Part shown: in pieces, positions 14,106-53,308 of the stretch
Layout: every line of letters starts with the position of its first letter
Numbering within the stretch: the first letter of the stretch is position 1
Assembly: GCA_963639175.1 (NCBI GenBank)
Contig: CAVHUN010000066.1
Location: 1-61,846, forward strand
Direction of reading: 5' to 3'
From: an uncultured Prevotella sp.
GTDB lineage: Bacteria; Bacillota_I; Bacilli_A; RFN20; CAG-288
DNA: 61,846 nt
The notes under the pieces: model-generated
Database searches by the model: none
Seen by the model: only the letters and a program-made list of their open reading frames with translations
Told to the model about the DNA's origin: nothing
Translations under genes and position numbers: made by a program

Positions 14106-14160
14106 ATTAATTTTTCTTTCCTTTATTAATGGTTTTATTTTAACATTAAAAAATATGCGA

Positions 14161-14239
14161 ATATATTGAAACCGCTTTCATTTAAAAGAAAAATTAAAGG
14201 CTACTAATAATTTAATTTTATTTAAATTAGTTAGTAGCC
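14161..14239 (-). repeat. terminator-plus-upstream-region cassette, copy 1 (homologous to 18264-18329)
   Basis: ATATATTGAAACCGCTTTCA...GGCTACTAATAATTTAATTTTATTTAAAT..TAGTAGCC aligns with TATATTCAAAACGCTTTCA...ACCGCTAATAATTTAATATTATTTAAAT..TAGCAGTC. Confidence 0.75.
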
Positions 14240-14240
14240 T
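14198..14240 (-). terminator. rho-independent terminator of the 773-aa lipoprotein gene
   Basis: On the minus strand, the stem GGCTACTAA/TTAGTAGCC is followed by TTTAATTTTTCTTTT. Confidence 0.7.
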
Positions 14241-14269
14241 ATGTTTTATTTTTTGGATTATGTTATTTA

Positions 14270-16567
14270 TTAAGCAGCATGATCATATACTGCAATTTCT
14301 ATAATTGCAATATCTGAAGTAACTTTTATATTTTCAATAGAATAATTTCCATGAACATAGTTTGCATTTATTTCCTTATAAGATTTATCTTTATAAATAA
14401 CTGTAACTTTAACATCAAATCTTTGAGTTGTATTAGTATCACCTATTGAAATAATAATTACTCCACCTTCTTCAATTTCAGCAGTTGTTTCTTTATAATC
14501 TTGTTTAGATATTCCTTGACTAAAAATATAACTATTCATATTTTGTATTGAAACTGAATCAATATCATATGAACTATAATTATTTACTTCAAACTTAATT
14601 GATGCTTTAGGTGCATCTTCTAAAGTTGCTGAAATAGTAATATTCTTTTCTGGCATATTAAATTCAACATATTTTTGATTATATTCATTAGTTTTTATTT
14701 CTAATTCAACATCATTTTCACCATCGTTGTATTTTACTGATTTAAGTACTTTGCTAGAATTTATAACACTAATTCCGACTTTAACTGTATCATCTTTTAC
14801 ATGTTTTGTATTGTTATTTTCACAAGAGAAATATACATCATTTGTATTTTCAAGTGTTATTTCATATGTCTTTTCAAAAGTAAATGTGAACTTACAAATT
14901 CCACTATTTGGCATGGTTGCTTCAATATAATATCCATTATTATCATATTTAGAATATGAAAGATTACTATCACTACCATCACTTACTAATGCACTTACTA
15001 ATTGATAACCGCTAATTACACTAGGTTGAATTTTAAATGTTTCACCAATTCCAATATTATCTAAAGTAGATGTATTTCCATTATTATCAATGATATTCAC
15101 TTTATTAAAATATGTTGAATCTTCTGTATAAGAAATTTTACCTAATTTAACTGTATTAATAACTATAGTAATACTTTCAGTTGCATTAGAAGGCATATAG
15201 AAATTAAATCCATATAATTTCATTGATGCATGTGAACTTGTAGCAGAAAATGTTTGTTCATAAGGAGTAACTTTATTAGTTTCATCTCCTTTAATATAAG
15301 CAGAAGTAACCTTATATCCTTCTTTTACTTTAGGAATAACATAGAAAGATGAATAATTATTTGCTTTATTTGTTTCTATATAATAACCTGCAGTACTATT
15401 TGGCTTAGCATAAATAGTTGTAGATTCAATATTTTCATTATTTTCAATAATAATTGAAGGGAAAGAAGTAGGAACAAATGTAATAGTTACATCATTAGTA
15501 GGCATATTAAAGCAAATGGAAGTTCCACCACGAGTATTTGTAGCACCTTCAATTGTATAAGTTACATTATATCCATCAACTGCATTATAAGATAAATCAA
15601 CTGTTTCACCTTCTAAATAAGTAGCACTAGGAGTAGAAGTAAAATTAACATATTCTCCACCAACAATATTTAAATTGCGCTTTTGAGCAACTTTAGTCTC
15701 AATCTTAATTGTTAAATTGTCATAAACTTCTAAAGAAAGATCAATAGAAGCAAAATTATTTTTCCAAATTAAAGAAGAATCAACACTTATATATTCCCCT
15801 TCTCCTAATTTATATGAAATCTTGCTAATAACAATATCTTTAGATCTATATAAAGAAAAACCAGATATTCTAGAACCAGTTTTAATAGTTTCAGGAGCAA
15901 TAGCCACAATTCCATCTCCTAAATCAAAAGATATATTTTTAGAATCGCTAGCTTCTGTATTTGTATAAACACTATATTGACCAATAATAAAATCAACTTC
16001 TTTTTCTTCACCTACTTCAGGCATAGTAAATGAACCAACAACATCATTTCCACTTGCTTCAACATTAAAAGCGATATTATGGCCACCAATATTTATTAAT
16101 GCATAATTAAAACTACTAATTGAACTTGCCATATTTAATATAGTGTAATTTACACTATCGCCAGTTTTATAAGAAGTCTTATCAAATAAAAATGAATCCT
16201 TAGAAAGACCATAAACAGCATTTTCTTGAATCTTAATATTAAATGTATGCTTACCTTGTTCATCTTCACTTGAAATAGAAGAAGATGATGTTGAAGTAGA
16301 ACTACTAGAAGAACTATAAGCTGATGAAGAGCTAGTACTACTAGAAGAACTTACACTGCTAGAAGTAGATTCACTACTTGAAAGTGAAGATGAACTAGAA
16401 GAAGGTGAAATTGCACTACTAGATGTACTAGATGAAGATGAGCTAACTAAACTAGAAGGAGTTTGAGAATTAGAAGATGAAGATGTACTTGAAGAAGTTT
16501 TATCATCACATCCAGCTAATAATAATATTGCCATTAATGGCAAAACGAATAATTTTGATTTTTTCAT
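14270..16567 (-). CDS. Ser-rich surface lipoprotein with repeated beta-modules (paralogue B, 765 aa from the ATG)
   Basis: Same architecture as 11808-14105. I place the start at the ATG at 16567, which gives an N-terminus identical to the paralogue (MKKSKLFVLPLMAILLLAGCD), not at the TTG at 16591 of the ORF track. Confidence 0.75.
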   Translation of the reverse strand: MKKSKLFVLPLMAILLLAGCDDKTSSSTSSSSNSQTPSSLVSSSSSSTSSSAISPSSSSSSLSSSESTSSSVSSSSSTSSSSAYSSSSSSTSTSSSSISSEDEQGKHTFNIKIQENAVYGLSKDSFLFDKTSYKTGDSVNYTILNMASSISSFNYALINIGGHNIAFNVEASGNDVVGSFTMPEVGEEKEVDFIIGQYSVYTNTEASDSKNISFDLGDGIVAIAPETIKTGSRISGFSLYRSKDIVISKISYKLGEGEYISVDSSLIWKNNFASIDLSLEVYDNLTIKIETKVAQKRNLNIVGGEYVNFTSTPSATYLEGETVDLSYNAVDGYNVTYTIEGATNTRGGTSICFNMPTNDVTITFVPTSFPSIIIENNENIESTTIYAKPNSTAGYYIETNKANNYSSFYVIPKVKEGYKVTSAYIKGDETNKVTPYEQTFSATSSHASMKLYGFNFYMPSNATESITIVINTVKLGKISYTEDSTYFNKVNIIDNNGNTSTLDNIGIGETFKIQPSVISGYQLVSALVSDGSDSNLSYSKYDNNGYYIEATMPNSGICKFTFTFEKTYEITLENTNDVYFSCENNNTKHVKDDTVKVGISVINSSKVLKSVKYNDGENDVELEIKTNEYNQKYVEFNMPEKNITISATLEDAPKASIKFEVNNYSSYDIDSVSIQNMNSYIFSQGISKQDYKETTAEIEEGGVIIISIGDTNTTQRFDVKVTVIYKDKSYKEINANYVHGNYSIENIKVTSDIAIIEIAVYDHAA
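16505..16567 (-). repeat. conserved signal-peptide cassette, copy 2
   Basis: 62 of 63 nt are identical to 14043-14105. Confidence 0.9.
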
Positions 16568-16634
16568 GTTAAATATTAATTTCCTTTTCAAAACATTTTT
16601 ATTTTATCATGAATATATATTTATAAAATATATA

Positions 16635-18263
16635 TTAAGAAAACTTTGCACAAAGCACTATACAAATTTAACTAAATAGAATAAACAAAATGTTGAAGCA
16701 TGTATTTTTAAACTTTTATAGAGGAAATACATGCTTTTCATTGGAAAAATATAAGCAAAATGTTATAATGTATAGTGTAAATACACCACTATACAAAGGA
16801 TACAATTATGGCAATACCAAAAGAAATATTAGATATTAAAAGACCTAAAAATACTAGAGTTAAAAAGAATGGAAATCATTATGATGTTATTAAAAGAACA
16901 TGTGTTTATAAAGATGGTAGAAGAGTTCCTAAAGAAATCGGAAAGATAGGTGAAATCATAAATGGTAAATATTATGACAAATCTAAAGATAAGATTGAAT
17001 CTTTGTCTTTTTCAAATATAGATATTAAAGAATTTGGCAGAACCAAATTATGCCATAAGCTAAGTGAAGAAATCTTAACTTCTTTAAGAACTTGCTTTTC
17101 TGAAAGTGATTCTCAACAAATATATGTTATGGCACTTCTAAGAAGTGCATATCCTCATATTACAGATAGAGATATGAAATATCGTTATGACACTTCTTTT
17201 ATTTCAACTCATTATCCAAGTGTTCATCTATCAGAAGTTAGCATTTGTAAATTTCTAGAATTACTTGGCAGGAACTATAATAGCCTTCATAAATATATGC
17301 AAGAAAGATTAGATGAAAGAGATAAAGATTGTATTACTATTGTGGATGGTATGTTAAAAGACACTACTGGAAAAGAAAGTAGCTTTGTACAATGGTCAAG
17401 AAAATCTAGAATAAAAGGAACAAAAGAAATATCTGTTCTTTACGCCTTTGATGCAGTTAAAGGGGAACCAATATGTCATAAAGTATACCCTGGAAATATG
17501 CTAGATATGTCTTCTTTTAATGATTTTATAGATAAATTTACATTAAAAGATTGTATGGTAATGGGGGATAAAGGCTTTTTAAGCAAAGAAAATATTGCTG
17601 ATTTAAAACAAAAGAAGCAAGTTCACTTTTTGCTTCCTTTAAAAAGATCTGATAAAAGAATTAACAATTTAAAACTTCTTTGTTTTCAAGGGACATTCAT
17701 TGACGAAGATGATGTTATTGAATATTCTAAAATTGAAAAAGATAAAATGTTTTATTATTGCTTTAAAAACAGTACAGATGCAGCAAGCGAAAGAAAAGGT
17801 TATCTTTTAAAGACACAAAAAGAGGAAAATTATAATAAAGAAAAATTAGATAAAAAAGATGATAAGTTTGGAATTATATGTTTTGAATCAGATCAAGATA
17901 TGAATCCAAAAGATGTATATTCAATGTACGATAAAAGATGGGAAATCGAAATATTTTTCGGATTCTATAAAAATATAGTTGGACTAAATAATGTAAGAGT
18001 AGATGGTGATTTAAGTATAATTGGTTCTGAATTTATCAATATGATATCAACAATAATATCATTAAAGTTAAAAAGAAAATTCATTGAAAAGAAACTAGAT
18101 AAAAAGTATTCTTTCTCACAAATAATGAACTATTTAGATCAAATAAAAAAGTTCAAAGATTCTGAAGGAGTTTGGAAAGATACAACAACTTTGAAATATA
18201 TTTCTGAACTCAAGGAATCCTTAGAACTTTAAAGTATAGTGGTGGGATTTAAAGTTTTATTAA
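16635..18263 (+). mobile_element. insertion sequence, IS1634/IS4-superfamily-like, ~1.63 kb
   Basis: Imperfect terminal inverted repeats. The left repeat is TTAAGAAAACTTTGCACAAAGCACTATAC (16635-16663). The right repeat, revcomp of 18234-18263, is TTAATAAAACTTTAAATCCCACCACTATAC. It holds a single DDE transposase ORF and is flanked by TATA on both sides. It interrupts a sequence that is contiguous in the paralogous intergenic region at 14141-14180. Confidence 0.75.
16808..18232 (+). CDS. DDE transposase (IS4 superfamily, IS1634-like)
   Basis: Candidate DDE residues lie in TIVDGML and VMGDKGF. The C-terminal motif YDKRWEIEIFFGFYKN matches Y-x2-R-x3-E-x6-K. An extended -10 TGTTATAAT sits at 16761-16769 and the RBS AAAGGA at 16795-16800. 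Confidence 0.8.
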   Translation: MAIPKEILDIKRPKNTRVKKNGNHYDVIKRTCVYKDGRRVPKEIGKIGEIINGKYYDKSKDKIESLSFSNIDIKEFGRTKLCHKLSEEILTSLRTCFSESDSQQIYVMALLRSAYPHITDRDMKYRYDTSFISTHYPSVHLSEVSICKFLELLGRNYNSLHKYMQERLDERDKDCITIVDGMLKDTTGKESSFVQWSRKSRIKGTKEISVLYAFDAVKGEPICHKVYPGNMLDMSSFNDFIDKFTLKDCMVMGDKGFLSKENIADLKQKKQVHFLLPLKRSDKRINNLKLLCFQGTFIDEDDVIEYSKIEKDKMFYYCFKNSTDAASERKGYLLKTQKEENYNKEKLDKKDDKFGIICFESDQDMNPKDVYSMYDKRWEIEIFFGFYKNIVGLNNVRVDGDLSIIGSEFINMISTIISLKLKRKFIEKKLDKKYSFSQIMNYLDQIKKFKDSEGVWKDTTTLKYISELKESLEL

Positions 18264-39884: not shown

Positions 39885-41312
39885 TTAACGTTTTAATAAA
39901 TATTTATACAATTCGATGTATTCATTAGCTTGTTTAGACCAAGAGAAATTAGCCTTCATAGCATTTTTAATCATGACATCTAATTCAGGATTCTTACTAT
40001 AATACATATCAATTGCTAAACCAATTGAATAATCAAAGCAGTTTTCATCCCAGCTTGCAAATGAAAAGCCTGTTGATTTTTCTTTATTATCATAATAAGA
40101 AACTACTGTATCATTTAAGCCACCAACTTTACTTACAATTGGTAAGCTACCATAATGCATAGCGATAATTTGACCAAGTCCACATGGTTCAAACATACTA
40201 GGCATTAAGAAGAAATCACTACCTGCATAAATTAAATGTGATAAGCCTTCATTGTATCCAAGATAGACTCTAATGTTATCTGGATATTTTTCTTGCATTT
40301 GCTTTAATTGAGATTCAATATCGTAATCTCCTTGTCCTAAAACAATTAATCTTGCATCTTTTGAAGCAATATTTTCTAAATTTCTTAAAATTCTATGAAC
40401 GCCTTTTTGAGATGTAAGTCTTGAAATTACTGCAAATAATGGTTTATCAATATCATCAGTTTTAAATCCAAATGCTTCTAAAACTGCCTTTTTATTTAAA
40501 TATTTACCATCTTTATATGTATTAATATCGTAATTTGCACTTATAGATTTATCACTTTTTGGTGAAAAGAATGTATAATCAATACCATTAACAATACCAA
40601 ACATATCTGATTGTCTATTATTAAGAATATATCCTAATCCATTAAATGCATTAAAATCAGATAAGAGTTCTCTTGCGTGTGTTATTGAAACAGTTGTAAT
40701 AGCATCACAAGTACAAATACCACCTTTTAATAATGAGACTTGATTATTGAATTTTAATAATCCACTAGAATAATAATATTCTTGTAAATTTAAATATTCA
40801 CCTAAATTATATGAATTAAAATATCCTTGGAACAATGGATTATGAATTGTTAATAATGACTTAAATTTCATACCAGCATCTGCACATAATAATGGTAAAA
40901 TTGCTGTTTGCCAGTCATTAACATGGATGATTTGAGGTCTTAAGTCTAATCTTAAGATAGCTTTTCTAACAGCTTGGCAGAAAAATGAGAATCTTTTTTC
41001 ATCATCTTGATAACCATAAAATCCATCTCTTTCAAAATAAGTGCCACATTCAACAAAATAATAGTCAACACCTTGTTTTGTATCTTTTAAAATGTTTGCT
41101 CCTATCATTTGATTTCCTTGAGGAATTTGAAATGAATCGACAAATTTATAATCATCTAAAACATTGCGTTTAGTTTTTAAATAGAAAGGTAAAAATACAC
41201 TGACTTTATGACCTTTCTTTTTCAAGGCTAAACTTAAACCACTAACTACATCTCCAAGTCCACCAGTTTTAGAAAATGGTACGGCTTCAGATGCTGCTAA
41301 TACTATACGCAT
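39885..41312 (-). CDS. glgA: glycogen synthase GlgA
   Basis: N-terminal AASEAVPFSKTGGLGDVV. The product is 475 aa. Confidence 0.92.
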   Translation of the reverse strand: MRIVLAASEAVPFSKTGGLGDVVSGLSLALKKKGHKVSVFLPFYLKTKRNVLDDYKFVDSFQIPQGNQMIGANILKDTKQGVDYYFVECGTYFERDGFYGYQDDEKRFSFFCQAVRKAILRLDLRPQIIHVNDWQTAILPLLCADAGMKFKSLLTIHNPLFQGYFNSYNLGEYLNLQEYYYSSGLLKFNNQVSLLKGGICTCDAITTVSITHARELLSDFNAFNGLGYILNNRQSDMFGIVNGIDYTFFSPKSDKSISANYDINTYKDGKYLNKKAVLEAFGFKTDDIDKPLFAVISRLTSQKGVHRILRNLENIASKDARLIVLGQGDYDIESQLKQMQEKYPDNIRVYLGYNEGLSHLIYAGSDFFLMPSMFEPCGLGQIIAMHYGSLPIVSKVGGLNDTVVSYYDNKEKSTGFSFASWDENCFDYSIGLAIDMYYSKNPELDVMIKNAMKANFSWSKQANEYIELYKYLLKR

Positions 41313-41313
41313 A

Positions 41314-42438
41314 TTAAACTATATCTCCTCTTTTAATATATTGGACATTTTCTTTTGTACCAACAATTTCCTTTTTATGAATAATTCTAGATTCTTTATC
41401 GCAGACTGCATTTTCAATGTGAGTTGATTCAGAAATATATGTACCTGTTAAAACAATAGAATCTTTGACTACACTACCAGCCTTAATTACAACATTTCTA
41501 CCAATAATAGAATTAATTACTGTACCTTCAATTTGGCTACCATTACCAATAAAGGAATTTTTAATATTAGCGTGAACTCCATATTTAGCAGGAGGAGTAT
41601 CAAATGATTTTGTATAAATTGGCCAGCTAGGGTCAAAATATGTTTCTCTCATTTTTGGATCAAATAAGAATTCTTGTGAATATTCTAAATAATGAGCTAA
41701 TGAATCAAAGCATCTTACAATTCCTTTATATTCATAACAATGAATAGGAATATCTTTATAAATTGTTTTAATAACATCTAATAATGAGAATAAAGAAGAT
41801 TCTTTTTTACCTAATTGAATTAAGCCTTTTAAGACTTCTTTATCAATAATAAAGGTTTGTAAATAAACATTTTCTTCATCTTGAGTTGCTAAATTATCGT
41901 GAATATCAGTTAAGATACCATTTTCATCGACTTTAACTACTTGTTCACCTAAAAATGTTGATTTAGCTTTATTAATCTTGGAATAGAAAAGTGAAATCTT
42001 ATTATTTTTAGCAATGTGGTCTTCAATATATGGTCTAAAATCCATCTTATAAATGATGTGGGTAGGAGCAAATACAAAGACATCTACATCTTCATTTACT
42101 GATTTTATATACCATTCGTTTTCAATTAAATTGTTAATATCGTGATTGTATAATTCATTTGAGGCAAATGGTTCATCATATAAAATGCTAACACCACCTA
42201 ATTTGGAGTTTTCATTATACATATGACCATCACCAATATGTTGAATAATAGAACGTAAATTTTTCTTTACTAAGACTGCCATTCTATCAATTCCAGAATT
42301 AGAGAAATTTGATAATGGAAAATCCATAAATGCATATCTACAAATAACTGATGTAGAAGCAAGTGATCTTGAAGAATTTAATAATCCGCAAGTTGCAGCA
42401 TAATGTAAGTTAACAATACCTATAGCTCTTGAACTCAT
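41314..42438 (-). CDS. glgD: glucose-1-phosphate adenylyltransferase regulatory subunit GlgD
   Basis: GlgC-like fold with a left-handed beta-helix C-terminus, but it lacks the GGxGxRL motif. It sits between glgC and glgA. Confidence 0.8.
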   Translation of the reverse strand: MSSRAIGIVNLHYAATCGLLNSSRSLASTSVICRYAFMDFPLSNFSNSGIDRMAVLVKKNLRSIIQHIGDGHMYNENSKLGGVSILYDEPFASNELYNHDINNLIENEWYIKSVNEDVDVFVFAPTHIIYKMDFRPYIEDHIAKNNKISLFYSKINKAKSTFLGEQVVKVDENGILTDIHDNLATQDEENVYLQTFIIDKEVLKGLIQLGKKESSLFSLLDVIKTIYKDIPIHCYEYKGIVRCFDSLAHYLEYSQEFLFDPKMRETYFDPSWPIYTKSFDTPPAKYGVHANIKNSFIGNGSQIEGTVINSIIGRNVVIKAGSVVKDSIVLTGTYISESTHIENAVCDKESRIIHKKEIVGTKENVQYIKRGDIV

Positions 42439-42453
42439 AATCTTTCCCTCCTT

Positions 42454-43566
42454 TTAGTTATTTACAAGTAAGATGGGTTCACCATCTTTACCTACATATT
42501 CACCTTCAACTTCAATATCAGGAGCAACTATACTTCTTCTAATATGAGCTCCTTTTTTGATTGTTGTATTTGGCATAATAACACTATCTTCAACTATAGC
42601 GCCTTCTTCAATTGTGACACCATGGAAAATAACTGAATGTTTAACTTCACCTGAAATTATTGCACCTTGGTTAGCAATTGAATCAGTTAATGAACCAGTT
42701 GGAGTTACATAACAAGGGAAAGAAAGTGTATCTTCAGATAAGATTCTTGCGTTATTTTCATATAAATCAAGAGTGCACTTTTCATCTAATAAATCCATGT
42801 TGGCTTCCCATAATGAATCTATAGTTCCAACATCTTTCCAATATCCATTAAATGGATAAGCATATAATCTTTTCTTTGCTTCAAGCATGCTAGGAATAAT
42901 GTTTTTACCAAAGTCATTTTCAGAATCTGGATTTTTATGATCTTTTACTAATTCAGCTCTTAAGGCTTTGTAATTGAAAATGTAAATACCCATACTTGCT
43001 AAAGTAGATTCTGGGTTTTTAGGTTTTTCAGTAAATGATTCAATCTTATAATCGCTATCTGCTTTCATAATACCAAATCTTTTTGCTTCTTCTAAAGTTA
43101 CTTGTAAACATGCGATTGTTAAATCGGCATTTTTAGATTTATGGAATGAAAGCATATCATCATAATCCATCTTATAAATATGGTCACCAGATAAAATGAT
43201 TACATATTCAGGATCTTCTTGATCTAAGAAATCCATATTTTGATAAATAGCATCAGCTGTGCCATTATACCAGTTAGCACCTTCATCAGTTTGATGAGGA
43301 GTTAAAACAACAGTCAATGATTTTTTACCATCAATACCCCAGTTAGAACCATTTGATACATAAGTATTTAAAGGTGTAGATTCATATTGAGTTAAAACAC
43401 CTACTGTATCAATTCCTGAATTAGCGCAGTTAGAAAGTGGGAAATCAATAATTCTATATTTTCCACCAAAATAGACTGCAGGCTTAGCTAATTTCTTTGT
43501 AAGTGATTTTAATCTTGTACCTTTGCCTCCTGCTAAAAGCATCGCAACAAATTTTCCTTTTATCAT
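42454..43566 (-). CDS. glgC: glucose-1-phosphate adenylyltransferase GlgC
   Basis: LAGGKGTRLKSLT, FPLSNCANSGI, and a hexapeptide-repeat C-terminus. Confidence 0.92.
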   Translation of the reverse strand: MIKGKFVAMLLAGGKGTRLKSLTKKLAKPAVYFGGKYRIIDFPLSNCANSGIDTVGVLTQYESTPLNTYVSNGSNWGIDGKKSLTVVLTPHQTDEGANWYNGTADAIYQNMDFLDQEDPEYVIILSGDHIYKMDYDDMLSFHKSKNADLTIACLQVTLEEAKRFGIMKADSDYKIESFTEKPKNPESTLASMGIYIFNYKALRAELVKDHKNPDSENDFGKNIIPSMLEAKKRLYAYPFNGYWKDVGTIDSLWEANMDLLDEKCTLDLYENNARILSEDTLSFPCYVTPTGSLTDSIANQGAIISGEVKHSVIFHGVTIEEGAIVEDSVIMPNTTIKKGAHIRRSIVAPDIEVEGEYVGKDGEPILLVNN

Positions 43567-43576
43567 ATTTACCTCC

Positions 43577-44623
43577 TTAATATATTAAAATGCCATTGCC
43601 TTTTTCTTCTTGTTTAAACACTACTTCCCCATTCAAACCATTTACAATTTTTGAAATAACTTGTTGGAAACCAAGTAATGCTTCAGCTTGTTTTTCTAAG
43701 ATTTGAGGATCTAATTTGTTTTTCAAATCTTTTACGAAATTGAACTTAAATCCTTCTAAGAAAATATATAAAGTGTCTTCTTTTAAAAGAATAATTACAT
43801 CAGTTTTAACATAAAATGATAATTTACTAATCGCATCAGCAACTTTCTTATTAATAATTAAATAAACTTCTTGACCTAATGTGGTATAACAAATAAAGTT
43901 TGTAATACTTGATATTTCATCAAAACCATATTTATTAATTTTCAAGCCATCAAATCTATCAAAGCTAGGTTCCCCACTTGATCTAATTTCTAAAAATGAA
44001 TGAGTTCTAACTTTAGATAACTTAGTAGAAATTAACAATCCATCTTTTTTAGATTCATTGTCATTTTTATATTTATAAGCATACATTTTTAAATCTACTA
44101 ATGATGTCTTTAATTCATATTGACTACCTATTTTAGAATTATAAATAGACATGCTTTCTAATACCTTTTCATTATCTTTAATTACATCTAATTTTTCTTG
44201 GTAATTAGTATCTAACAATATGCCGTTTAATTTAGCTTCACTAATTAAACTCTCTTCATATTTTTTTCTATATTTCTTATTGAGTTTTAAATAATGTAAC
44301 TTAACATACAATAAGCAAATAAATACACAAACTAATATGACTACTAATAATATAACTAATCTATAGATGCTCTCTTTAATAGAAAAGTCAAATAAAGACA
44401 CATTAGTATCAAAATAAGGGATAAAATTTAAAGCGCTTACACTTCCAAAAAAATTATTATTAAACAAAAAATAACCTCTAGATAAGCTAGCTAAAAACAC
44501 ATATGCAAAATAAAGCAAAAATACCCCTAGGCTAATTGATATCCCTTGTAGAATATTTCTTCTGATTAACTTTTTTTGTTCTTTTTTAATATAACTTGTT
44601 CCAGAATATACTGTTTTTCCCAT
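43577..44623 (-). CDS. membrane protein of unknown function (possibly DUF3137-like), first gene of the glg transcription unit
   Basis: Two to three N-terminal TM segments plus a ~220-aa soluble domain. Its stop is 10 nt from the glgC start. The family assignment is from memory of the sequence pattern only. Confidence 0.35.
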   Translation of the reverse strand: MGKTVYSGTSYIKKEQKKLIRRNILQGISISLGVFLLYFAYVFLASLSRGYFLFNNNFFGSVSALNFIPYFDTNVSLFDFSIKESIYRLVILLVVILVCVFICLLYVKLHYLKLNKKYRKKYEESLISEAKLNGILLDTNYQEKLDVIKDNEKVLESMSIYNSKIGSQYELKTSLVDLKMYAYKYKNDNESKKDGLLISTKLSKVRTHSFLEIRSSGEPSFDRFDGLKINKYGFDEISSITNFICYTTLGQEVYLIINKKVADAISKLSFYVKTDVIILLKEDTLYIFLEGFKFNFVKDLKNKLDPQILEKQAEALLGFQQVISKIVNGLNGEVVFKQEEKGNGILIY

Positions 44624-44703
44624 AAGATTAATTTTTCTATGACTTAATTATACACTATTTAATTTATACATGAACTAATATAAATTAATTTTTTACTAAA
44701 TTT

Positions 44704-44738
44704 AAAACACTCTAGGTGTTTTTTTACCCAGAGTGTTA
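44704..44738 (-). terminator. terminator-like hairpin after jetC
   Basis: AACACTCTAGG (44706-44716) pairs with CCCAGAGTGTT (44727-44737) with one mismatch. The flanks are T-rich. Confidence 0.45.
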
Positions 44739-44755
44739 ATTTAAGCGCTTAAATT

Positions 44756-47700
44756 TTAATTATTTGCGTTTAATTTTCTTTTATCAACATATCTATCGAT
44801 TCTAGAACGGTTGTGTTTAGTATCGTGCATTACAACTAAAGTCAAATCTACTTCGTTAACTAAATCGGTAACTTTTTCAGTAGGTGTTGATAATATAGCT
44901 TGTAATCCAAAGCTTCTTAATAATGAGACAGCTTCTTTAATTCTTGAACCATCCATTTTTGAGAAAGCTTCATCAAAGATAACTAATCTAATTGTATCTG
45001 CATTTGAATCGTTACTTCTATAAAGTTGAGCAAAGGAAGCTAATATTGAAATGTAGAAAGGAGTTTGAGTTTCACCACCTGATTGTCTTTTGAATGTTCT
45101 TGCTAAACTTGATTCAGATTCATTAGAGCCTCTTTTAACTAATAAGTCAAAGACTAAATAGGTTCTATAATCAGTGAACTTTTCAACGTTTTGAATAATT
45201 TCTTGTCTAGTAGCTATATCATTAGAAGAACTTGAATCGCTAATTAAAGCGAATAAGTTATTCATAATTGGACCATATTTTTCTAAATAGATATCTTCAG
45301 CATCACCAACATTTAATAATAAATCATCAGTGATCATCTTGTAATATTCAATATAGTCTTTATTAGGTTCAACTGAGAAACGATATGAGTCTCTACCAAA
45401 CTTGACATCTTTTAAGGCTTGGTTTAAATCATCAATTTGAGCTTTAATAGTTTCAAATGAATTTCTAAGTTTATAAATAAAGTCATCTTTGAATTCTTTA
45501 ATAGCTTTATTATGAGCAGATTCAATTTGTTTTAAGTAACTAGGAAGCATGACATTTTGTAAGTTTTCTAATTCCTTATCAAAGTCAGCATTTGAATCTT
45601 CTTTAGTTGTATCATAAGACAAATTATAGACTATGGTGTACTTACTTCTTAAATCAACAAGCTTGTCTTTAGCATTCTTTTCTCTATTTTGCATTTGAAC
45701 ATAAGTAGATTGAGCTTCTTGTTTAATTCTAGTAAGAGGCATATTTTCCATAGCGTTATCGAAAAATGGAGCGTATTTTGTCTCAACTAATTCTTGATCA
45801 AATCTCATCAATTTATCACCAAACATAGTAAGGGCGATATTTTTAGCAGGAATTAAATCATTAACAAGTGTCTTATTAGTATTTTCTAATCCACCTTGTT
45901 CAATTAATAACTTATTCTTTTCATCTTCTAATAATTTGATATCAGCATCAATGTCTGCAATCTTTTTATCAAATGCAGAGACTTCATTTAAATCACCTTC
46001 ATGTAATTGTTGTTCTAAATGTTCAATTTCTTGATTGTAAGAATCAACTAATCTCATATCTTCAATATCAGAAATATAGGTGTTAATTTCAGAAGAAGAA
46101 ATAACTTCTAACATTGAAATAGATTTAACATAGGAATTTAAATCGTTATATAAATCTAATTTTCTAGAGATAACATTTAAATCTTCATTTTTAGAAAATT
46201 CAGATTCATTTGAAACTTTAGTACCAATAAAAGGAACATTTCCCTTTCTTTCATCTAAATAGAACGAAGCGAAGTTTCTATAACCAGTGCAGTTTGTTAA
46301 TAAACCATTTCCAGATTCTCTTGCTTCAGCAAATGTTTCGCATTTTTTAACTTTACCAAGTAAGAAATCTGCATATGCTCTTGCGCCTTTATTTGAAGTG
46401 ATAATTTCTTCAGCAACTGAACCATTTGATGCACTAAATTCTCTTTCAATTAATTTTCTTGTATCAACTAATGAAATTGAATAGACATTATATTGTTTAC
46501 AAATCTTAGCTAACATCTTAGCAGCATCTTCATAATATTGATCATCGACAAATAAATTGAATTTTTGATTGAAGATATAAGCTTCTATTGCCTTAGTCCA
46601 TCTTTTATCTTTAATGTCCCACACATCGCAAAATGAAGTGACTTCAACATAATCAAATTTGTCGTTTAATTCATCTTTAAGAGCTTCTTTAATTTGTAAA
46701 TATGTTAAATTAAATGGTTTTTGACCTGAATGAATAGCGCTAATTTCACCGCTTATTGATTTTACTTTGTCATTTAAAGAAGAAATTGAATTTTCAAGTA
46801 AATGACCCATTTTCAAAGCGTAAGAATGTAAAGATGCCATTTGAGATTGGAAATCTTCTAATAAAGCAGAAGAGACATCTTTGATATTTAAACCATTTAA
46901 TAAATCTTGGCAAATAGAAGAAAAGTCAATAATAACATTTTTAAAATCATCTAAAGTATCATTTTCTTTATCTGACAAAAATGAAACATCTAAATTAGCT
47001 AATCTACTATTAATTGCTTTAATTGCATCATCATATTGTCTTAAATAGCTTTTTAAAGTTGTAGATAATAAATTATAGTTATTTTCTAATGAGGCGATCT
47101 TTTCTAATGTAGCGTTCTTTTTAGCTAAGATAGAACTAGATAAAGAATATCCACTTGAACCGACCTTTTTAGCTAAATAAGATTCAGATTCTTTTTTAAG
47201 TTCATTAATTTGTTCATCTTTTTCTTTTAATAATTTACCAATTTGGATAATTCTTGCATTGTTATTTTCTAAAGTTGATTTGTATTTATCTAATTCAACT
47301 TTACAAGTTTCATAATTAGCTCTATCAGTGACATAATCAGCTAATTGTTTATCTTGTTTAGCTTTTTGTAAATTATCATAAGCTTGTTTGATAGCAGTTA
47401 AAGCATCAATTTTAACTTGAATCTTTTTAGCTTCTACTTCTAATAATTTATATTGTTCAATGTTATTTCTCATTGAAGAAATATCGACATTATAATCAAT
47501 ATCGCAGACAAATTCAGTAATAAAGTTAGAAATATTAGTAATTGGAGTAAATGAAACTGCCTTTTTAAATAAGGAAAGATATTTATCAGGTAAGTCACCA
47601 AAGATTTGTTTTAAGAATGTTTGATAACTTAAATTTGTGTCAAAGAACTTATATTGATTTGATTTGTAATTATTTTGGAAAAAAGTTGATAATTCTTTAT

Positions 47701-48163
47701 AAGATAATGGTCTAGAAATTTGATTATCTAAACTATCTTTATTTGTAAAGTTGTTTTCTGGGAAATTATCTTCTAAATAGAAGAAACGATGTTCTTCTTT
47801 ATCATCTTCATAACAATCAAAGACAACACCTAAAGTGAAATTAGAATCATTAGAAGTATCTTTAAATTGTAAAGCAATATAAGAAGTAAATCTTCCAGGA
47901 CGTAAGCACATTATTTGACCTTGGCTTGTTTCACCAGTTTCGCATCTTAAATATCCTCTAAGTGATCTTCCTGTTTTTTCATTAGCGGCTTTGTTGAAGT
48001 TTCTACCAGAAGTATCACCAAGTAATACTATTTGCATAGCATCGATAATTGTTGATTTACCTGTACCATTAGAGCCAGTTAAAAATGTGATGTTTTTAAT
48101 ATCGACTGTGTCGTTAGCAAATAAATGCCAGTTAATTAATCTTAATTTATTTAATTCTTTCAT
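44756..48163 (-). CDS. jetC: SMC-like ATPase, JetC/MksB family (1135 aa)
   Basis: N-terminus LRLINWHLFANDTVDIKNITFLTGSNGTGKSTIIDAMQIVLLGD...FNKAA. A long coiled-coil middle region follows. The C-terminus carries the signature QSGGETQTPFYI and Walker B LVIFDEAFSKMD. Confidence 0.8.
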   Translation of the reverse strand: MKELNKLRLINWHLFANDTVDIKNITFLTGSNGTGKSTIIDAMQIVLLGDTSGRNFNKAANEKTGRSLRGYLRCETGETSQGQIMCLRPGRFTSYIALQFKDTSNDSNFTLGVVFDCYEDDKEEHRFFYLEDNFPENNFTNKDSLDNQISRPLSYKELSTFFQNNYKSNQYKFFDTNLSYQTFLKQIFGDLPDKYLSLFKKAVSFTPITNISNFITEFVCDIDYNVDISSMRNNIEQYKLLEVEAKKIQVKIDALTAIKQAYDNLQKAKQDKQLADYVTDRANYETCKVELDKYKSTLENNNARIIQIGKLLKEKDEQINELKKESESYLAKKVGSSGYSLSSSILAKKNATLEKIASLENNYNLLSTTLKSYLRQYDDAIKAINSRLANLDVSFLSDKENDTLDDFKNVIIDFSSICQDLLNGLNIKDVSSALLEDFQSQMASLHSYALKMGHLLENSISSLNDKVKSISGEISAIHSGQKPFNLTYLQIKEALKDELNDKFDYVEVTSFCDVWDIKDKRWTKAIEAYIFNQKFNLFVDDQYYEDAAKMLAKICKQYNVYSISLVDTRKLIEREFSASNGSVAEEIITSNKGARAYADFLLGKVKKCETFAEARESGNGLLTNCTGYRNFASFYLDERKGNVPFIGTKVSNESEFSKNEDLNVISRKLDLYNDLNSYVKSISMLEVISSSEINTYISDIEDMRLVDSYNQEIEHLEQQLHEGDLNEVSAFDKKIADIDADIKLLEDEKNKLLIEQGGLENTNKTLVNDLIPAKNIALTMFGDKLMRFDQELVETKYAPFFDNAMENMPLTRIKQEAQSTYVQMQNREKNAKDKLVDLRSKYTIVYNLSYDTTKEDSNADFDKELENLQNVMLPSYLKQIESAHNKAIKEFKDDFIYKLRNSFETIKAQIDDLNQALKDVKFGRDSYRFSVEPNKDYIEYYKMITDDLLLNVGDAEDIYLEKYGPIMNNLFALISDSSSSNDIATRQEIIQNVEKFTDYRTYLVFDLLVKRGSNESESSLARTFKRQSGGETQTPFYISILASFAQLYRSNDSNADTIRLVIFDEAFSKMDGSRIKEAVSLLRSFGLQAILSTPTEKVTDLVNEVDLTLVVMHDTKHNRSRIDRYVDKRKLNANN

Positions 48164-48172
48164 ACTAACTCC

Positions 48173-48790
48173 TTAGTTGTTATCTTGATTTTCTGGATTA
48201 ACAAGCATGTTATACAATGCATTTAATCTAGCATTTGAAATAACATAACGAATGCTTGGTAAGATGTAAAATTCATAATTAGAATCGTTAAATGACCCCT
48301 TAGATAAACAGATGATATTATAAGAAGATAAAGTTCTTAAGCTAGCTTGAATAGTGACATTAGAAATTCTTTTTGAAACTGTAGATAAAGCTAAATCTCT
48401 TAATAACCCTCTTAAACTAGAAGCATCCATTTTTACTTCGTTAGATGAAGTGTTATTGCCTAACTTATCTTCATAATATGAACGTAAAGCGTAAATTACT
48501 AAAGTAGTAACTCCATCAATTCTAATCTTATTTGTATCTAAATCAGAAGTGGTGTAAATTACCCCATTATCTGAATCCATATTTAAACTGATACCTGCAA
48601 AATCTAAATAGTCACTTATTAAATCATAATGTCTTTCAACAAATAAATAAGATGAATTGATTTTGCCTAAGGAAGAAGTTTTATCAAAAGTTCTTCTTAC
48701 TAAATAGCATCTATATAATAAAGTAGAAACAACATCTTGGAATTGAGCTTGTTCGCCCCTACTTAATTTAGAATAATCTTCTTCAAACAT
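48173..48790 (-). CDS. jetB: JetB/MksE-like (DUF4194-type) subunit, 205 aa
   Basis: Assigned by size, by position between the kleisin-like and SMC-like genes, and by a DUF4194-like pattern (FQDVVSTLLYRCYLVRR...YLFVERHYDLISDYLDFAGISL). The RBS of jetC overlaps its stop codon. Confidence 0.6.
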   Translation of the reverse strand: MFEEDYSKLSRGEQAQFQDVVSTLLYRCYLVRRTFDKTSSLGKINSSYLFVERHYDLISDYLDFAGISLNMDSDNGVIYTTSDLDTNKIRIDGVTTLVIYALRSYYEDKLGNNTSSNEVKMDASSLRGLLRDLALSTVSKRISNVTIQASLRTLSSYNIICLSKGSFNDSNYEFYILPSIRYVISNARLNALYNMLVNPENQDNN

Positions 48791-48793
48791 AAA

Positions 48794-50257
48794 TTATTTT
48801 CTTCCTTTCTTTGTAAAGCAGTAATTAGGAACAATAAACTTGTCTAATACATATGTTTCATCTAATCTTTCAATTGTGTAGAACATATCATTAAATTGAG
48901 CTCTAACTGTCGCTAATATCAATAAAATCATATCGTCTAAAGTATTTAAAGAAATATCTTTAGTAGTGATTTGTTTTTTATCGCCAAAGTTTTTCAACAT
49001 GAAATCAATGATTGCATCTTGAGAATATTTATTAACTTCTTCTGCAATGTAATTTGTTAAGCTATCATCATCTGAAAATAGTTCATCTTCAAGTGGCATT
49101 GGTTCACAATCTTCTTTTTCTCCTCTTTTAAATGGCATAGTAAGAGAATCAGAATTTACAAAGCCTTGTCTAAATAAATTAACAGTATCACTTGCTTGAG
49201 AAATAACTTTCAAATTAATGTATTCATCATGATAATCATTTGGTAAGCTATCAATAGCTTTAGCCATAGCAAGAATAATTGTATCTAATTTACCCTTAAT
49301 TGACTTATCTGAATTAGATAAGTAATTAACTTTCTTTTGAACAGCTTGAATATAATTTGAATTAGCCTTATCAATTTCATCAAAACTATTTGAAAGTTTA
49401 GAATAAATATCAATAGTTTGTTGAATCATTCTATTGACAATATCAAATACATCAGATGACTTCATTTTAGAATAGGCTGGATCAAATTTAGCTTGAGAAA
49501 CTAATTTAGCCATTATTCTTTTATCGCGTTGCCATCTTTTTAAAATGTTAGTAACTGGTAAAGCGTAAAGTCCTAATGAGTCATATGTTTTCATTGGGTG
49601 ATAAATTTTATCTCCGATTTGTTTTTGGAAGACATCAAAATGTTGACTTAAAGCGTCATTAGGATTAAATATTGTTGTTAATTTATGACCATATACACAA
49701 ATTGAATGGTGTAATAATGTGACATTTAATTCAAGTTCATCAGCATTCTTTCTTGCAGAAGCTAAAGAGCGGAACATATAATCATCTTCTTTTTCATCTT
49801 CTAAAGACAATTCAGAATATGTTTGGTGAACTAAAGGAATATATAAAGAAGTATCACTAGATAAATCTTCAATTAATTGGATCATCTTAATTGTATAACC
49901 AGGCAAATAAATCATATCGATATTTGTCTTAGTATCTTTTTCAACATCGATCCAACCAGTAGAGACTAATTTTCTAAATATGTAATTAGTCTTAAAATTT
50001 ATTGAATCTTGTTCAGATTCAACAAAGACGTTTTCTTCATCTACTTTATCATCTAATTTATCAAGATTAACATCAAACAAAGCTAATAAATCACTACCGC
50101 GACTTCTTAACATATTGATATAATCTGACTTTTGAATATTAGTCTTATAAGTTTTTAAGCATTCAAATAAAGTGAGTAAAGAATAAACATAAACATTTTT
50201 ATATTTTCTTGAGAGAATTGTGAAAAAATTCTCAGGTATTTTATCAAAAAGATTCAA
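48794..50257 (-). CDS. jetA: JetA/MksF-like kleisin-type subunit, 487 aa, TTG start
   Basis: Assigned by position and size in a three-gene A-B-C arrangement. The stop is 3 nt from the jetB start. A TTG start has AGGAG 8 nt upstream. No diagnostic motif is verifiable by eye. Confidence 0.5.
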   Translation of the reverse strand: MNLFDKIPENFFTILSRKYKNVYVYSLLTLFECLKTYKTNIQKSDYINMLRSRGSDLLALFDVNLDKLDDKVDEENVFVESEQDSINFKTNYIFRKLVSTGWIDVEKDTKTNIDMIYLPGYTIKMIQLIEDLSSDTSLYIPLVHQTYSELSLEDEKEDDYMFRSLASARKNADELELNVTLLHHSICVYGHKLTTIFNPNDALSQHFDVFQKQIGDKIYHPMKTYDSLGLYALPVTNILKRWQRDKRIMAKLVSQAKFDPAYSKMKSSDVFDIVNRMIQQTIDIYSKLSNSFDEIDKANSNYIQAVQKKVNYLSNSDKSIKGKLDTIILAMAKAIDSLPNDYHDEYINLKVISQASDTVNLFRQGFVNSDSLTMPFKRGEKEDCEPMPLEDELFSDDDSLTNYIAEEVNKYSQDAIIDFMLKNFGDKKQITTKDISLNTLDDMILLILATVRAQFNDMFYTIERLDETYVLDKFIVPNYCFTKKGRK

Positions 50258-50298
50258 AGTTTTTTCTCCTAAACTTAGTACTTTTACAGCACAAAAAT

Positions 50299-50328
50299 AT
50301 TATATATTCTACCACCTTATTTATTCAA
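50299..50328 (-). promoter_or_regulatory. candidate sigma-A promoter of the jetABC operon
   Basis: On the minus strand: TTGAAT (50323-50328), 18 nt spacer, then TATAAT (50299-50304). Confidence 0.45.
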
Positions 50329-50396
50329 TAAATAAAATGGAAAAACACGACAAAATGTATCTATTATGGTACAAGATATTAATATTTTCTTTAGAA

Positions 50397-51188
50397 TTAT
50401 AAACCGACAATATTGTGATCTTTTTTACTTCTTTTTAATTTGTAAATATCAACTAATTCTTCATCTGCTTTTTTCATTATTTTTAATTCTTCATCAATTG
50501 AAGATTCGACTTGTTTTATTAAATCATTTGTCTTTATATCTTTATAATAAGAAGGATAATAAGTCTTAATAAAAGTAATTTGAATTGGATAATTCTTCAT
50601 TTTTAATTTCTTATCTAAGACTCTATATCCCCCTTGAATACAAGCTACAACAATTGGCTTATTTGCATTATATGCAATCTTTAATGAACCAGCCTTAAAT
50701 TCATTGAGGCTATGTTCTACATTTTTACTTCTTGTACCTTCTGGAAAGATAACAACATTAGCGTTTGTCTCTTTTAATATCTTGCTAGCCACACTGATAG
50801 ATTTTACTTCTGAACGGAAATCATTTCTATCCATAAACACTCCATCAATTGCTTGTAACATTTTTCCAGCATATGGAAACTTTAAAACCTCTTTTTTAGA
50901 TACAAAGGTTGTAGGATTTTCAAAATAGTCAATAAAGGAAATTGGGTCCATATTTGATTGATGATTACAAACAAGCAAAAAGTTAGAATCTTTAGGAAGA
51001 TTCTCTTCTCCTTTTATAATAAATTTAACATCGAAGTTTTTATTAAACTTTCTTAAAAAGGCTCTAACTTTAGAATATCTTTCATCTAAAAGATATTTAT
51101 CTTTGTGTTTAATGTATTTATTTAACCACCTAGAAGAACCAAGTAAAGGAAATATTTCCTTACAAACTATTTTGAAGTATTTAAACAT
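50397..51188 (-). CDS. plsC: 1-acyl-sn-glycerol-3-phosphate acyltransferase
   Basis: HX4D motif NHQSNMDP and the FPEGTRS motif. Confidence 0.85.
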   Translation of the reverse strand: MFKYFKIVCKEIFPLLGSSRWLNKYIKHKDKYLLDERYSKVRAFLRKFNKNFDVKFIIKGEENLPKDSNFLLVCNHQSNMDPISFIDYFENPTTFVSKKEVLKFPYAGKMLQAIDGVFMDRNDFRSEVKSISVASKILKETNANVVIFPEGTRSKNVEHSLNEFKAGSLKIAYNANKPIVVACIQGGYRVLDKKLKMKNYPIQITFIKTYYPSYYKDIKTNDLIKQVESSIDEELKIMKKADEELVDIYKLKRSKKDHNIVGL

Positions 51189-51190
51189 AA

Positions 51191-53308
51191 CTAGCCTCTT
51201 ATTAAAACCATGACACTTATATTATCGACAACTATATTAGAAGATACAAGTTTATCTTCTACCCCGTTTTTAGAAAAAACTAATTTATAATTACCTTTTA
51301 AAGGATATTCTATATCAGTTAAATTAGGATTTATTAAAATTAGCATCTTCTCTTTATTGTTTTTTGAATATCTAATTAATAAACCTTTTTTAGGAAGTTC
51401 TTCAAAAGAAATCATAGAAGCCACTTTTAATGGACTATCAATTTTAAAATCATCAATATAAGTCTTCTTTATATAATTAGCTTGCTTAAAATATTCAACC
51501 ATGTCTTTTCTTGAATACATCAATTGATAATCAAAACCATTTATATCATCTCCAGCATTATAAGAATTTCTCACCATGTGCTTAGATTGACCAAATTCTT
51601 GTCCCATGTGTATAAATGAAATGCCATTGCTAAATAAGATGACTGTATTTATTAAATTTATTCTATCTAAAGTGATCTCTAAATTAGAATTACAAGTTAT
51701 CAATTTATCAAATAAACAATTATCATCATGACACTCAACATAATTTATTGATTGACTGGCTTTTTTAAATAAAGGTGGGAAAGAAATAGGAAGAATAGAA
51801 CCTTGATAGACATGTTTAAATCCATCTATGTAATTTGTATCCCCATTTAAATACCCGCAAATTGATAAATTCTCAAATTGATTTCTTCCACGTAATACAT
51901 CGCGGAATCTATCATTAAAAAATCCGACATTTTCAAGTTTAAATGTGTTTGCTAAACAAGATCTATGTTCACTAGATAATGGAGATTGCATATCCCATCC
52001 TTCTCCATATACTAAATCATCTTTAGAAAATGAATCTACACATTTTCTTACTTCTTGAATTGTCTTAATATCAATTAATCCCATTAAGTCAAATCTAAAT
52101 CCATCTATACCATAAACTTCTTTAAAATATTTAACATTATCGATAATTAATTTTCTTATCATGTATTTTCTAGTTTCTAATTCATTGCCACATCCAGTTG
52201 AATTAGCTAAGCTACCATCTTCATTTTTTCTATAGCAATAATTTGGTAACAATCTATTTAAAGGATTAGTTTCAGAATCAAAGACATGATTAAAAACCAC
52301 ATCAAGATTCACTTTAATCCCACATTTATGGAAACTAGATATCATGTTTTTAAATTCAATCATTCTTGCATAAGGGTCTTCACTATTTGAAGCATAAGAG
52401 CCTTCAATTGCAAAATAGAACTTAGGATCATATCCCCAATTATATGAATCGCATTTAAAATCATCAGCGATAGTTTGGAAATCATATACAGGCATTATTT
52501 GAACATGAGTTACTCCTAAATCCTTTATATATGATAAACCAGCATTCATCCTTTTATATTTCAAATTAGGATTAGACATAGCCTTAAAAGTACCACTATC
52601 ATCTATATTTAATCTACTAGTCATATCTCTAACATCAAATTCATAAATTAAAGATTTCATTTTAGAAACTTTATTTATACATTCTTGATAAGAATTAATA
52701 GATTTTATTTTTTCAATATCGACAATATAAGCAAATTGAGAATTTGTATCTACACTTGAAGCATATGGATCACAAACTTGAATCATCTTTCCACTTATTT
52801 TAGCAATATATAAATACTTATATCCTTCAAAATCTCCATCAATAGAGCCAATAAAGACTCCACATTCTTCTCTTTTTAAAGTGATTGTATGTTCTTCACC
52901 ATTTTTAAAAATATAACAAAATACTTTTGTGGCTAAAGGTGAAAAGACTCTAAATTCAGTCTTTTCTTTTGAATAAATTGACCCTAAGACTCCATCATAT
53001 CTATATTTTTTCTCAAATTCATCTAAACTTGCTAAATAAGACACATCTAAAGAATAGGCTCTATTTAAACTATCAAATACGCGATAGTCTTTTCCTGGTT
53101 TTATCTTGTAATTAAAAGATAAACTAACTACGCATCTTACCTTATCTTCAGAAATTGAAAATGAATCTAATTTTAAAAAGCAAACAAACTTATTATCTTC
53201 ATATAATCTAACTTTTAATAAATCTTCTTTTCTAAAATAATTAAATAAATATAGAGTAATATGTTTTAAATCTTTTAATATCGCTTGATTCTTATTGTAA
53301 AATTCCAT
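51191..53308 (-). CDS. type I pullulanase / alpha-1,6 debranching enzyme (GH13)
   Basis: YNWGYDP signature and GH13 regions GFRFDLMG, YGEGWD and YVECHDD. Confidence 0.85.
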   Translation of the reverse strand: MEFYNKNQAILKDLKHITLYLFNYFRKEDLLKVRLYEDNKFVCFLKLDSFSISEDKVRCVVSLSFNYKIKPGKDYRVFDSLNRAYSLDVSYLASLDEFEKKYRYDGVLGSIYSKEKTEFRVFSPLATKVFCYIFKNGEEHTITLKREECGVFIGSIDGDFEGYKYLYIAKISGKMIQVCDPYASSVDTNSQFAYIVDIEKIKSINSYQECINKVSKMKSLIYEFDVRDMTSRLNIDDSGTFKAMSNPNLKYKRMNAGLSYIKDLGVTHVQIMPVYDFQTIADDFKCDSYNWGYDPKFYFAIEGSYASNSEDPYARMIEFKNMISSFHKCGIKVNLDVVFNHVFDSETNPLNRLLPNYCYRKNEDGSLANSTGCGNELETRKYMIRKLIIDNVKYFKEVYGIDGFRFDLMGLIDIKTIQEVRKCVDSFSKDDLVYGEGWDMQSPLSSEHRSCLANTFKLENVGFFNDRFRDVLRGRNQFENLSICGYLNGDTNYIDGFKHVYQGSILPISFPPLFKKASQSINYVECHDDNCLFDKLITCNSNLEITLDRINLINTVILFSNGISFIHMGQEFGQSKHMVRNSYNAGDDINGFDYQLMYSRKDMVEYFKQANYIKKTYIDDFKIDSPLKVASMISFEELPKKGLLIRYSKNNKEKMLILINPNLTDIEYPLKGNYKLVFSKNGVEDKLVSSNIVVDNISVMVLIRG

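Follow-up and report, generated by a model that had tools for sequence, protein, structure and literature searches.

Analysis of the window, by which we mean the whole 61,846-nt (61.8-kb) stretch of contig CAVHUN010000066.1, revealed a three-gene operon, jetA-jetB-jetC, that belongs to the type I Wadjet families but lacks the gene for JetD, the Toprim nuclease of these systems. The same arrangement was found in all close relatives of the locus (referred to below as the clade). We are highly confident that the locus encodes a bona fide, selected and nuclease-free JetABC. As for its function, we lean towards the view, by analogy with studied complexes, that this nuclease-free descendant of a type I Wadjet works mainly on the host chromosome, as an organiser or segregation aid resembling MksBEF and MukBEF.

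The operon consists of three coupled open reading frames (ORFs), all on the minus strand: jetA (48794..50257, 487 aa, with a TTG start preceded by the ribosome-binding site (RBS) AGGAGA), jetB (48173..48790, 205 aa) and jetC (44756..48163, 1135 aa). The intergenic gaps measure 3 and 9 nt, and the junction between jetB and jetC reads TAA-GGAGTTAGT-ATG, so that the jetB stop codon is embedded in TAAGGAG, the RBS of jetC. Profile searches with hidden Markov models (HMMs) identified the 487-aa protein, on the strength of its matches to Pfam PF18982 (JetA, formerly DUF5716; 9.7e-68, 229 bits, cutoff 26) and to PADLOC JetA1 (2e-92, spanning residues 1-486), as JetA, the type I kleisin subunit. JetB matched Pfam DUF4194 at 4.6e-16 with 59 bits (cutoff 32.7) and PADLOC JetB1 at 9e-65. 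JetC aligned to PADLOC JetC1 with 1050 bits across residues 1-1130, its ends matched Pfam AAA_29 and SbcC_Walker_B, and a weak SMC_hinge match was present at residues 518-616; it is predicted to be an SMC-like (structural maintenance of chromosomes) ABC ATPase with a coiled coil and a hinge. It is not a canonical SMC protein, the score against NCBIfam TIGR02169 being 16 bits where the cutoff is 729. The best sequence matches of JetC in the Protein Data Bank (PDB) were the JetC proteins of Escherichia coli GF4-3 (8as8, 8bfn and 8q72) and Pseudomonas aeruginosa (8dk1-3), and phmmer searches of JetA and JetB against the PDB returned no match. The Walker A motif GSNGTGKST of JetC is encoded at 48050..48076 on the minus strand, and its G and GKST are 100 % conserved in the clade; the segment from the signature SGGE through the Walker B motif FDEAF lies at 44963..45082 (minus strand), where the clade and the JetD-bearing relatives alike have SGGE and DE at 100 % conservation.

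These results largely bear out a preliminary description of the same DNA. It had reported the three coupled ORFs with the same lengths and gaps, which our coordinates match exactly, and the overlap of the jetC RBS with the jetB stop, with which the junction sequence agrees. Its call of a Wadjet- or Mks-like family is supported by the strong matches of all three proteins to type I Wadjet models; its placement of the 205-aa protein in DUF4194 (JetB/MksE) was recovered, which makes this protein the putative KITE (tandem winged-helix element interacting with kleisin) subunit; and the JetC motifs that it listed (GSNGTGKST, FNKAA, SGGE and FDEAF) are all present in the translation. Its proposal of a kleisin-like JetA also stands, but the family it guessed, DUF3375, does not, as the matches are to PF18982/DUF5716 and JetA1. 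Nor is JetA too divergent to be confirmed, as had been stated, since the HMMs recognise it easily.

JetD was sought with an HMM that was seeded with two annotated type I JetDs, from Cohnella and Rossellomorea plasmids, and iteratively enlarged to 63 sequences. It matched nothing in the window in any of the six frames, even when filters were off and hits at E <= 1 were accepted. Loci for comparison came from contigs of public genomes and metagenomes that carry a gene for a JetC relative. In 27 loci, JetC shares 38-100 % identity with that of the window (phmmer score of at least 795 bits); all of them contain jetABC without JetD, and the HMM gave no match in their six frames, again at E <= 1. 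In 23 of them the sequence continues for at least 3.4 kb past the end of jetC. At the 62 loci with a more distant JetC (<= 703 bits), the same HMM found JetD directly after jetC, and the stop-to-stop ORFs of jetC and jetD usually overlap there, with a median offset of -48 nt. The absence of JetD, which the preliminary description had noted for the window, is a property of the clade and not an assembly gap. The link to an AT-rich genome suggested in that description does not hold, because the GC content of the JetD-less clade ranges from 25 to 59 %.

The loss of the nuclease is mirrored at the site where JetC would hold it. Cryo-electron microscopy of the E. coli JET complex showed that F919 of JetC, in the head 'larynx', inserts into a hydrophobic pocket of the aCAP domain of JetD, and the substitution F919E in E. 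coli JetC abolishes plasmid restriction (10.1101/2023.11.03.565488). We chose F919 as the test site before the alignment was inspected, and mapped it by HMMER full-chain alignment of 8as8 to a JetC profile, with the chain numbering checked so that the phenylalanine is residue 919. The corresponding part of the window's JetC is the 'GDAED' segment (residues 953-957; 45293..45307, minus strand), which carries a two-residue deletion and acidic residues; counting from the LN..F..DrY anchor, which aligns with confidence, leads to the same place to within 1-2 residues. Comparison of 89 aligned sequences revealed a conserved G-x-[GN]-L-F-[SA] at this position in the JetCs of JetD-bearing loci (L in 54 of 60 and F in 49 of 60), whereas in all 22 clade JetCs [GN]-L is deleted and A/D-E/D replaces F-S/A ('GD--AED'). 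The same deletion was present in 120/120 homologues from a protein search. Among 150 global representatives it occurred only in the clade, the others having LF (65), IF (14), LM (11), LL (6) or LY (5), among others. The change is consistent with, and exactly what is expected from, a JetC to which JetD no longer binds.

Across the roughly 1100 columns of the alignment, 27 separate the JetD-less from the JetD-bearing JetCs. Three adjacent docking columns are among these, and 10 of the 27 lie in or just after the hinge (JetC residues ~516-650; binomial p = 6e-4), a concentration which suggests that the function of the hinge changed along with the loss of the nuclease. The N-terminus of JetB, which is predicted to touch JetD, showed no visible difference between the two groups.

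In a tree of 89 unique JetCs, the 22 unique JetD-less sequences formed one clade with 100/100 bootstrap support, surrounded by JetD-bearing lineages. The tree is a distance-based neighbour-joining tree, rooted at the midpoint and built without a type II/III outgroup. Searches of a representative library of 1.84 billion proteins found 813 JetC representatives at E <= 1e-30, of which the clade accounts for about ten full-length clusters at 50 % identity, with a gap in score before the other JetC representatives.

Further, independent type I jetABC loci without JetD were encountered outside the clade, namely L073-L078/L080, L042 and L011. The first of these, L073-L078 (GC 56-61 %), form a small and apparently recent JetD-less group that keeps the L-F docking motif. 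In L042 the docking segment reads 'RINAAAF'; short same-strand ORFs after its jetC were considered as a decayed jetD and rejected, as they gave no HMM signal at E <= 1. L011 is located on a 252-kb replicon of Agathobacter rectalis (NZ_CP143948; jetABC at 197-203 kb), where a gene for a carbonic anhydrase comes after jetC and a 10-residue insertion interrupts the docking segment of JetC. Loss of JetD appears to be recurrent among type I loci.

Analysis of the gene neighbourhoods showed that jetABC of the clade is a vertically inherited, syntenic gene set of the core chromosome, unlike the JetD-bearing defence loci sampled. In the window, jetA is preceded upstream by plsC (PF01553), and jetC is followed by a gene for a protein with two transmembrane (TM) helices and then by glgC, glgD and glgA. 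The order pulA-plsC / jetABC / (membrane protein)-glgC-glgD-glgA recurs through the clade, and glgC lies within the fetched flanks of 18/27 clade loci, compared with 0/62 JetD-bearing loci. Pairs of clade loci with 50-85 % JetC identity share 52-61 % of their flanking ORFs, and pairs with 25-50 % identity still share 18-19 %; the corresponding values for JetD-bearing pairs are 0-2 % at JetC identities below 85 % and 24 % above 97 %. The remainder of the window is ordinary core chromosome, with genes for an ECF transporter, TruA, Pst, ThiI, IscS, EzrA, GlyA, a pullulanase and FtsK. Among 72,556 plasmids no close relative was found, the best match being 28 % identical.

The sequences of the jet genes also evolve like those of their neighbours. 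Pairwise distances between JetCs were strongly correlated with those between GlgCs (r = 0.91, n=14), GlgAs (r = 0.92, n=10) and PlsCs (r = 0.88, n=7), with Mantel p <= 0.0006. The ratios of nonsynonymous to synonymous substitution rates (dN/dS), computed against the two closest relatives, L001 and L002, were 0.14 for jetA, 0.14-0.25 for jetB and 0.22-0.25 for jetC. The range for the jet genes (0.14-0.25) does not exceed the values for glgD (0.25), pulA (0.27-0.32) and plsC (0.33); glgC and glgA gave 0.12 and 0.15, respectively. The Walker A, signature and Walker B motifs of JetC are invariant in the clade.

In canonical Wadjet, a complex that has stalled on a fully extruded small circle recruits the Toprim nuclease JetD to the JetC head, and the DNA is cut. 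JetABC without JetD extrudes loops in vitro. By analogy, the ATPase JetC, the kleisin JetA and the KITE subunit JetB of the clade would form the dimer of motor units JetA2B4C4, which would load on DNA and use ATP for loop extrusion. Because jetD is gone and the docking residue is deleted, the clade complex would no longer be able to cleave by the Wadjet route; and since its genes behave like core genes, the activity that is retained would benefit the host continuously. Among these uncultured gut Bacilli, jetABC has become part of the core chromosome and is inherited vertically, and on this model it most likely organises the host chromosome. The subunit stoichiometry, the extrusion of loops and the role on the chromosome are all carried over from the JetABC and MksBEF complexes that have been studied. 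An MksBEF-type nuclease-free complex was the first of the alternatives put forward in the preliminary description, and it is the one that the clade-wide absence of JetD and the deletion of the docking site favour.

Several points weigh against this interpretation or limit it. The chromosomal role of the clade is argued by analogy, and a complex without a nuclease might still have a part in defence, such as the compaction or mis-segregation of plasmids. E. coli JetC is only ~25 % identical, so the mapping of F919 is good to 1-2 residues only, and the deletion at this site goes back to a single inherited evolutionary event, which makes it a consistency check and not a statistical proof. The absence of JetD refers to the window and to 6-10 kb flanks of its relatives. 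Finally, JetD is present in all Wadjet types, and it is on this fact that the direction of the change, loss and not gain, rests, since the tree is midpoint-rooted without an outgroup.

The possibility of a defensive role deserves the most attention among the rival explanations, although we consider it clearly the less probable one. Here JetABC would control plasmids or other mobile genetic elements independently of a nuclease. It would still recognise small circles by extruding them completely, and would then either neutralise them uncut (by compacting, silencing or mis-segregating them, similarly to Smc5/6) or pass them to an unlinked effector other than JetD that binds the acidic patch. It is JetABC that confers the sensing of DNA shape and size in Wadjet; the docking segment of the clade has not merely degraded but has been replaced by a conserved acidic motif, GD-AE[DNS]; and the enrichment of substitutions at the hinge would fit a changed function better than simple loss. 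These observations are set against the absence of any conserved partner gene: the only recurrent downstream genes are those for a 348-aa membrane protein and glgCD, and no other gene, upstream or downstream, is conserved with jetC across the clade loci. A variant with a different effector, as the preliminary description had allowed for, is for the same reason unsupported. The synteny, the co-divergence and the low dN/dS also differ from what is seen at the sampled JetD-bearing defence loci.

A stronger version of the chromosomal interpretation is that JetABC may be the principal motor of chromosome folding and segregation in this lineage of gut Bacilli with reduced genomes, replacing or overriding Smc-ScpAB, which would parallel MukBEF in the gamma-proteobacteria. 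We regard this version as doubtful; a search for SMC across the window and ~460 kb from the clade loci returned nothing, a result that says little either way.

It is still less probable that the locus is an ordinary type I Wadjet whose jetD has been relocated elsewhere in the genome and acts in trans. Inspection covered the 61.8-kb window and the flanks of its relatives, and the retention of the L-F motif in the JetD-less loci L073-L078 indicates that split or recently truncated systems may exist. However, JetD adjoins jetC in 62/62 of the JetD-bearing loci, the docking dipeptide is deleted in every member of the clade while F919E alone inactivates E. coli JET, and the three-gene unit ends in a terminator of its own, the position of which is conserved in three species. 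The suggestion in the preliminary description that the nuclease might be encoded elsewhere or lost is accordingly unlikely in its first part, given the clade-wide docking deletion and the lack of JetD in all relatives with 38-100 % JetC identity. That the operon is a decaying remnant of a defence system, with its effector lost and on the way to pseudogenisation, is effectively refuted by the conservation data, namely intact full-length ORFs down to 38 % JetC identity, dN/dS of 0.14-0.25 and invariant catalytic motifs, and is very improbable despite a split jetB in one metagenome-assembled genome (MAG). In that MAG (L016, GCA_948597985.1, 5357-6000), jetB is split or truncated, with a call of 109 aa; L014 and L015, with identical JetC, have an intact jetB of 215 aa, and the split reflects either a frameshift in the assembly or the pseudogenisation of jetB in this one MAG.

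Among known systems, type I Wadjet JetABCD, as known from E. coli GF4-3 (8AS8/8BFN/8Q72) and P. aeruginosa PA14 (8DK1-3), consists of the same families as the clade locus in the same A-B-C order with tight coupling and intact ATPase motifs; it differs in having jetD and an F919-type docking residue and in occurring in variable contexts, whereas the clade locus is without both, syntenic and vertically inherited. As a system, the clade locus lacks two defining features, JetD and the docking residue, and should therefore not be classed with the Wadjet defence systems. Annotators of defence systems should not count such loci as Wadjet immunity, even incomplete. The closest functional precedent is MksBEF of P. 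aeruginosa (PA4684-4686), which is likewise a three-gene operon for kleisin, KITE and SMC subunits without MksG/JetD. Like it, the clade locus is a nuclease-less three-gene operon with stable, vertical chromosomal inheritance under purifying selection; the origins are independent, however, since the clade proteins are of type I Wadjet families and are placed beside JetD-bearing lineages of the Firmicutes type. MukBEF of the gamma-proteobacteria shares the dimeric kleisin-KITE-SMC architecture with JetABC and is, according to one hypothesis, a Wadjet that was domesticated and took over as main chromosome organiser, but its similarity to JetC is only remote (profile match to the MukB head, 3euj, 5e-14). 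The homologous SMC-like complexes MksBEFG of Corynebacterium glutamicum and EptABCD of Mycobacterium smegmatis keep MksG/JetD and restrict plasmids; the clade locus has no nuclease.

MksBEF operons of three genes, with no MksG, have been on record since 2011, and recent papers state the idea of domestication explicitly, so that the concept is not new; the clade is a new and unusually clean instance of it. We found no paper in which the domestication of Wadjet is linked to this lineage or to a type I clade of Firmicutes. The working hypothesis of the field is that MukBEF and MksBEF go back to a Wadjet whose nuclease was lost and which was recruited to chromosome maintenance, and the known examples are too diverged to show the route. 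The clade offers a closer comparison, with clear JetD-bearing sisters, a single lesion at the docking site, changes concentrated at the hinge and a fixed chromosomal address, and it thereby makes the hypothesis directly testable by reconstitution and swaps. As the JetD-bearing sister lineages are only ~35-40 % diverged, the transition from defence to housekeeping could be retraced residue by residue.

Transcription signals were located at both ends of the operon, in line with the own promoter and terminator that the preliminary description had assigned to it. Upstream of jetA, in the spacer between plsC and jetA, the promoter-like site TTGAAT-18-TATAAT (50299..50328, minus strand) is the best consensus match of the region (10/12). 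Promoter-like matches in general were not more common than in shuffled sequence of this 27 % GC DNA, so a match to the consensus means little by itself in an AT-rich context. L001 and L002 nevertheless both retain the -35/-10 block, the 'ATTTTTGT' that follows it, the GGAG and a non-ATG start, in a spacer that has otherwise diverged, and we infer that the block acts as the jetA promoter. After jetC, a hairpin resembling an intrinsic terminator with a T-rich tail was found at 44706..44737 (minus strand; 12 pairs, -19.2 kcal/mol, z = -6.4 relative to shuffles). L001 and L002 each have a hairpin of their own, non-homologous to that of the window, with a U-run directly after jetC (z = -5.4 and -4.8, respectively). 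With a conserved promoter block and position-conserved hairpins and U-runs in three loci, jetABC appears to be a self-contained transcription unit.

The gene following the operon encodes the 348-aa protein (43577-44623, minus strand), with two N-terminal TM helices and weak matches to DUF3137 and PspC-TM. In 13 related loci a homologue directly precedes glgC and has a conserved extended -10 of its own; it stays beside glgC when other genes part it from jetC (L014, L019, L020 and L025), and it is absent from the clade loci L007 and L012. This protein was considered as a replacement effector and rejected, because it travels with glgC, is missing from some clade loci and has no nuclease-like matches. 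It belongs with the glg operon and is a possible, so far uncharacterised, membrane partner of the glycogen genes. The linkage of jetABC to the glycogen genes (39885-53308 in the window, and the clade loci) persists to ~40 % JetC identity; no functional reason for it is apparent, and it may represent a frozen ancestral gene order.

Some of the assemblies examined call for comment. L001 (CAVFIT010000024.1; 26 % GC), with the gene order of the window and a JetC that is 83 % identical, was deposited in a 'Phocaeicola dorei' MAG and is almost certainly a mis-binned contig. L004 and L018 (LAHS01000170.1 and LAHS01000164.1) both come from GCA_000987605.1 and are different clade loci with GC contents of 46 % and 40 %, respectively, from which we conclude that this is a mixed, metagenome-type assembly. 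The nearest named match to GlyA is that of Ca. Enterosoma merdigallinarum, at 70 %, and the jet genes were not found in the GlyA neighbourhood of that organism. Within the window, a DDE_Tnp_1 transposase gene (16808-18232, plus strand) separates two blocks of large ORFs on the minus strand (11808-16591 and 18373-28292). The ORFs in these blocks are 521-938 aa long, most of them being without Pfam match or having Big_2 or peptidase-M6-like domains, and the blocks probably represent a cluster of variable surface proteins in an otherwise housekeeping region.

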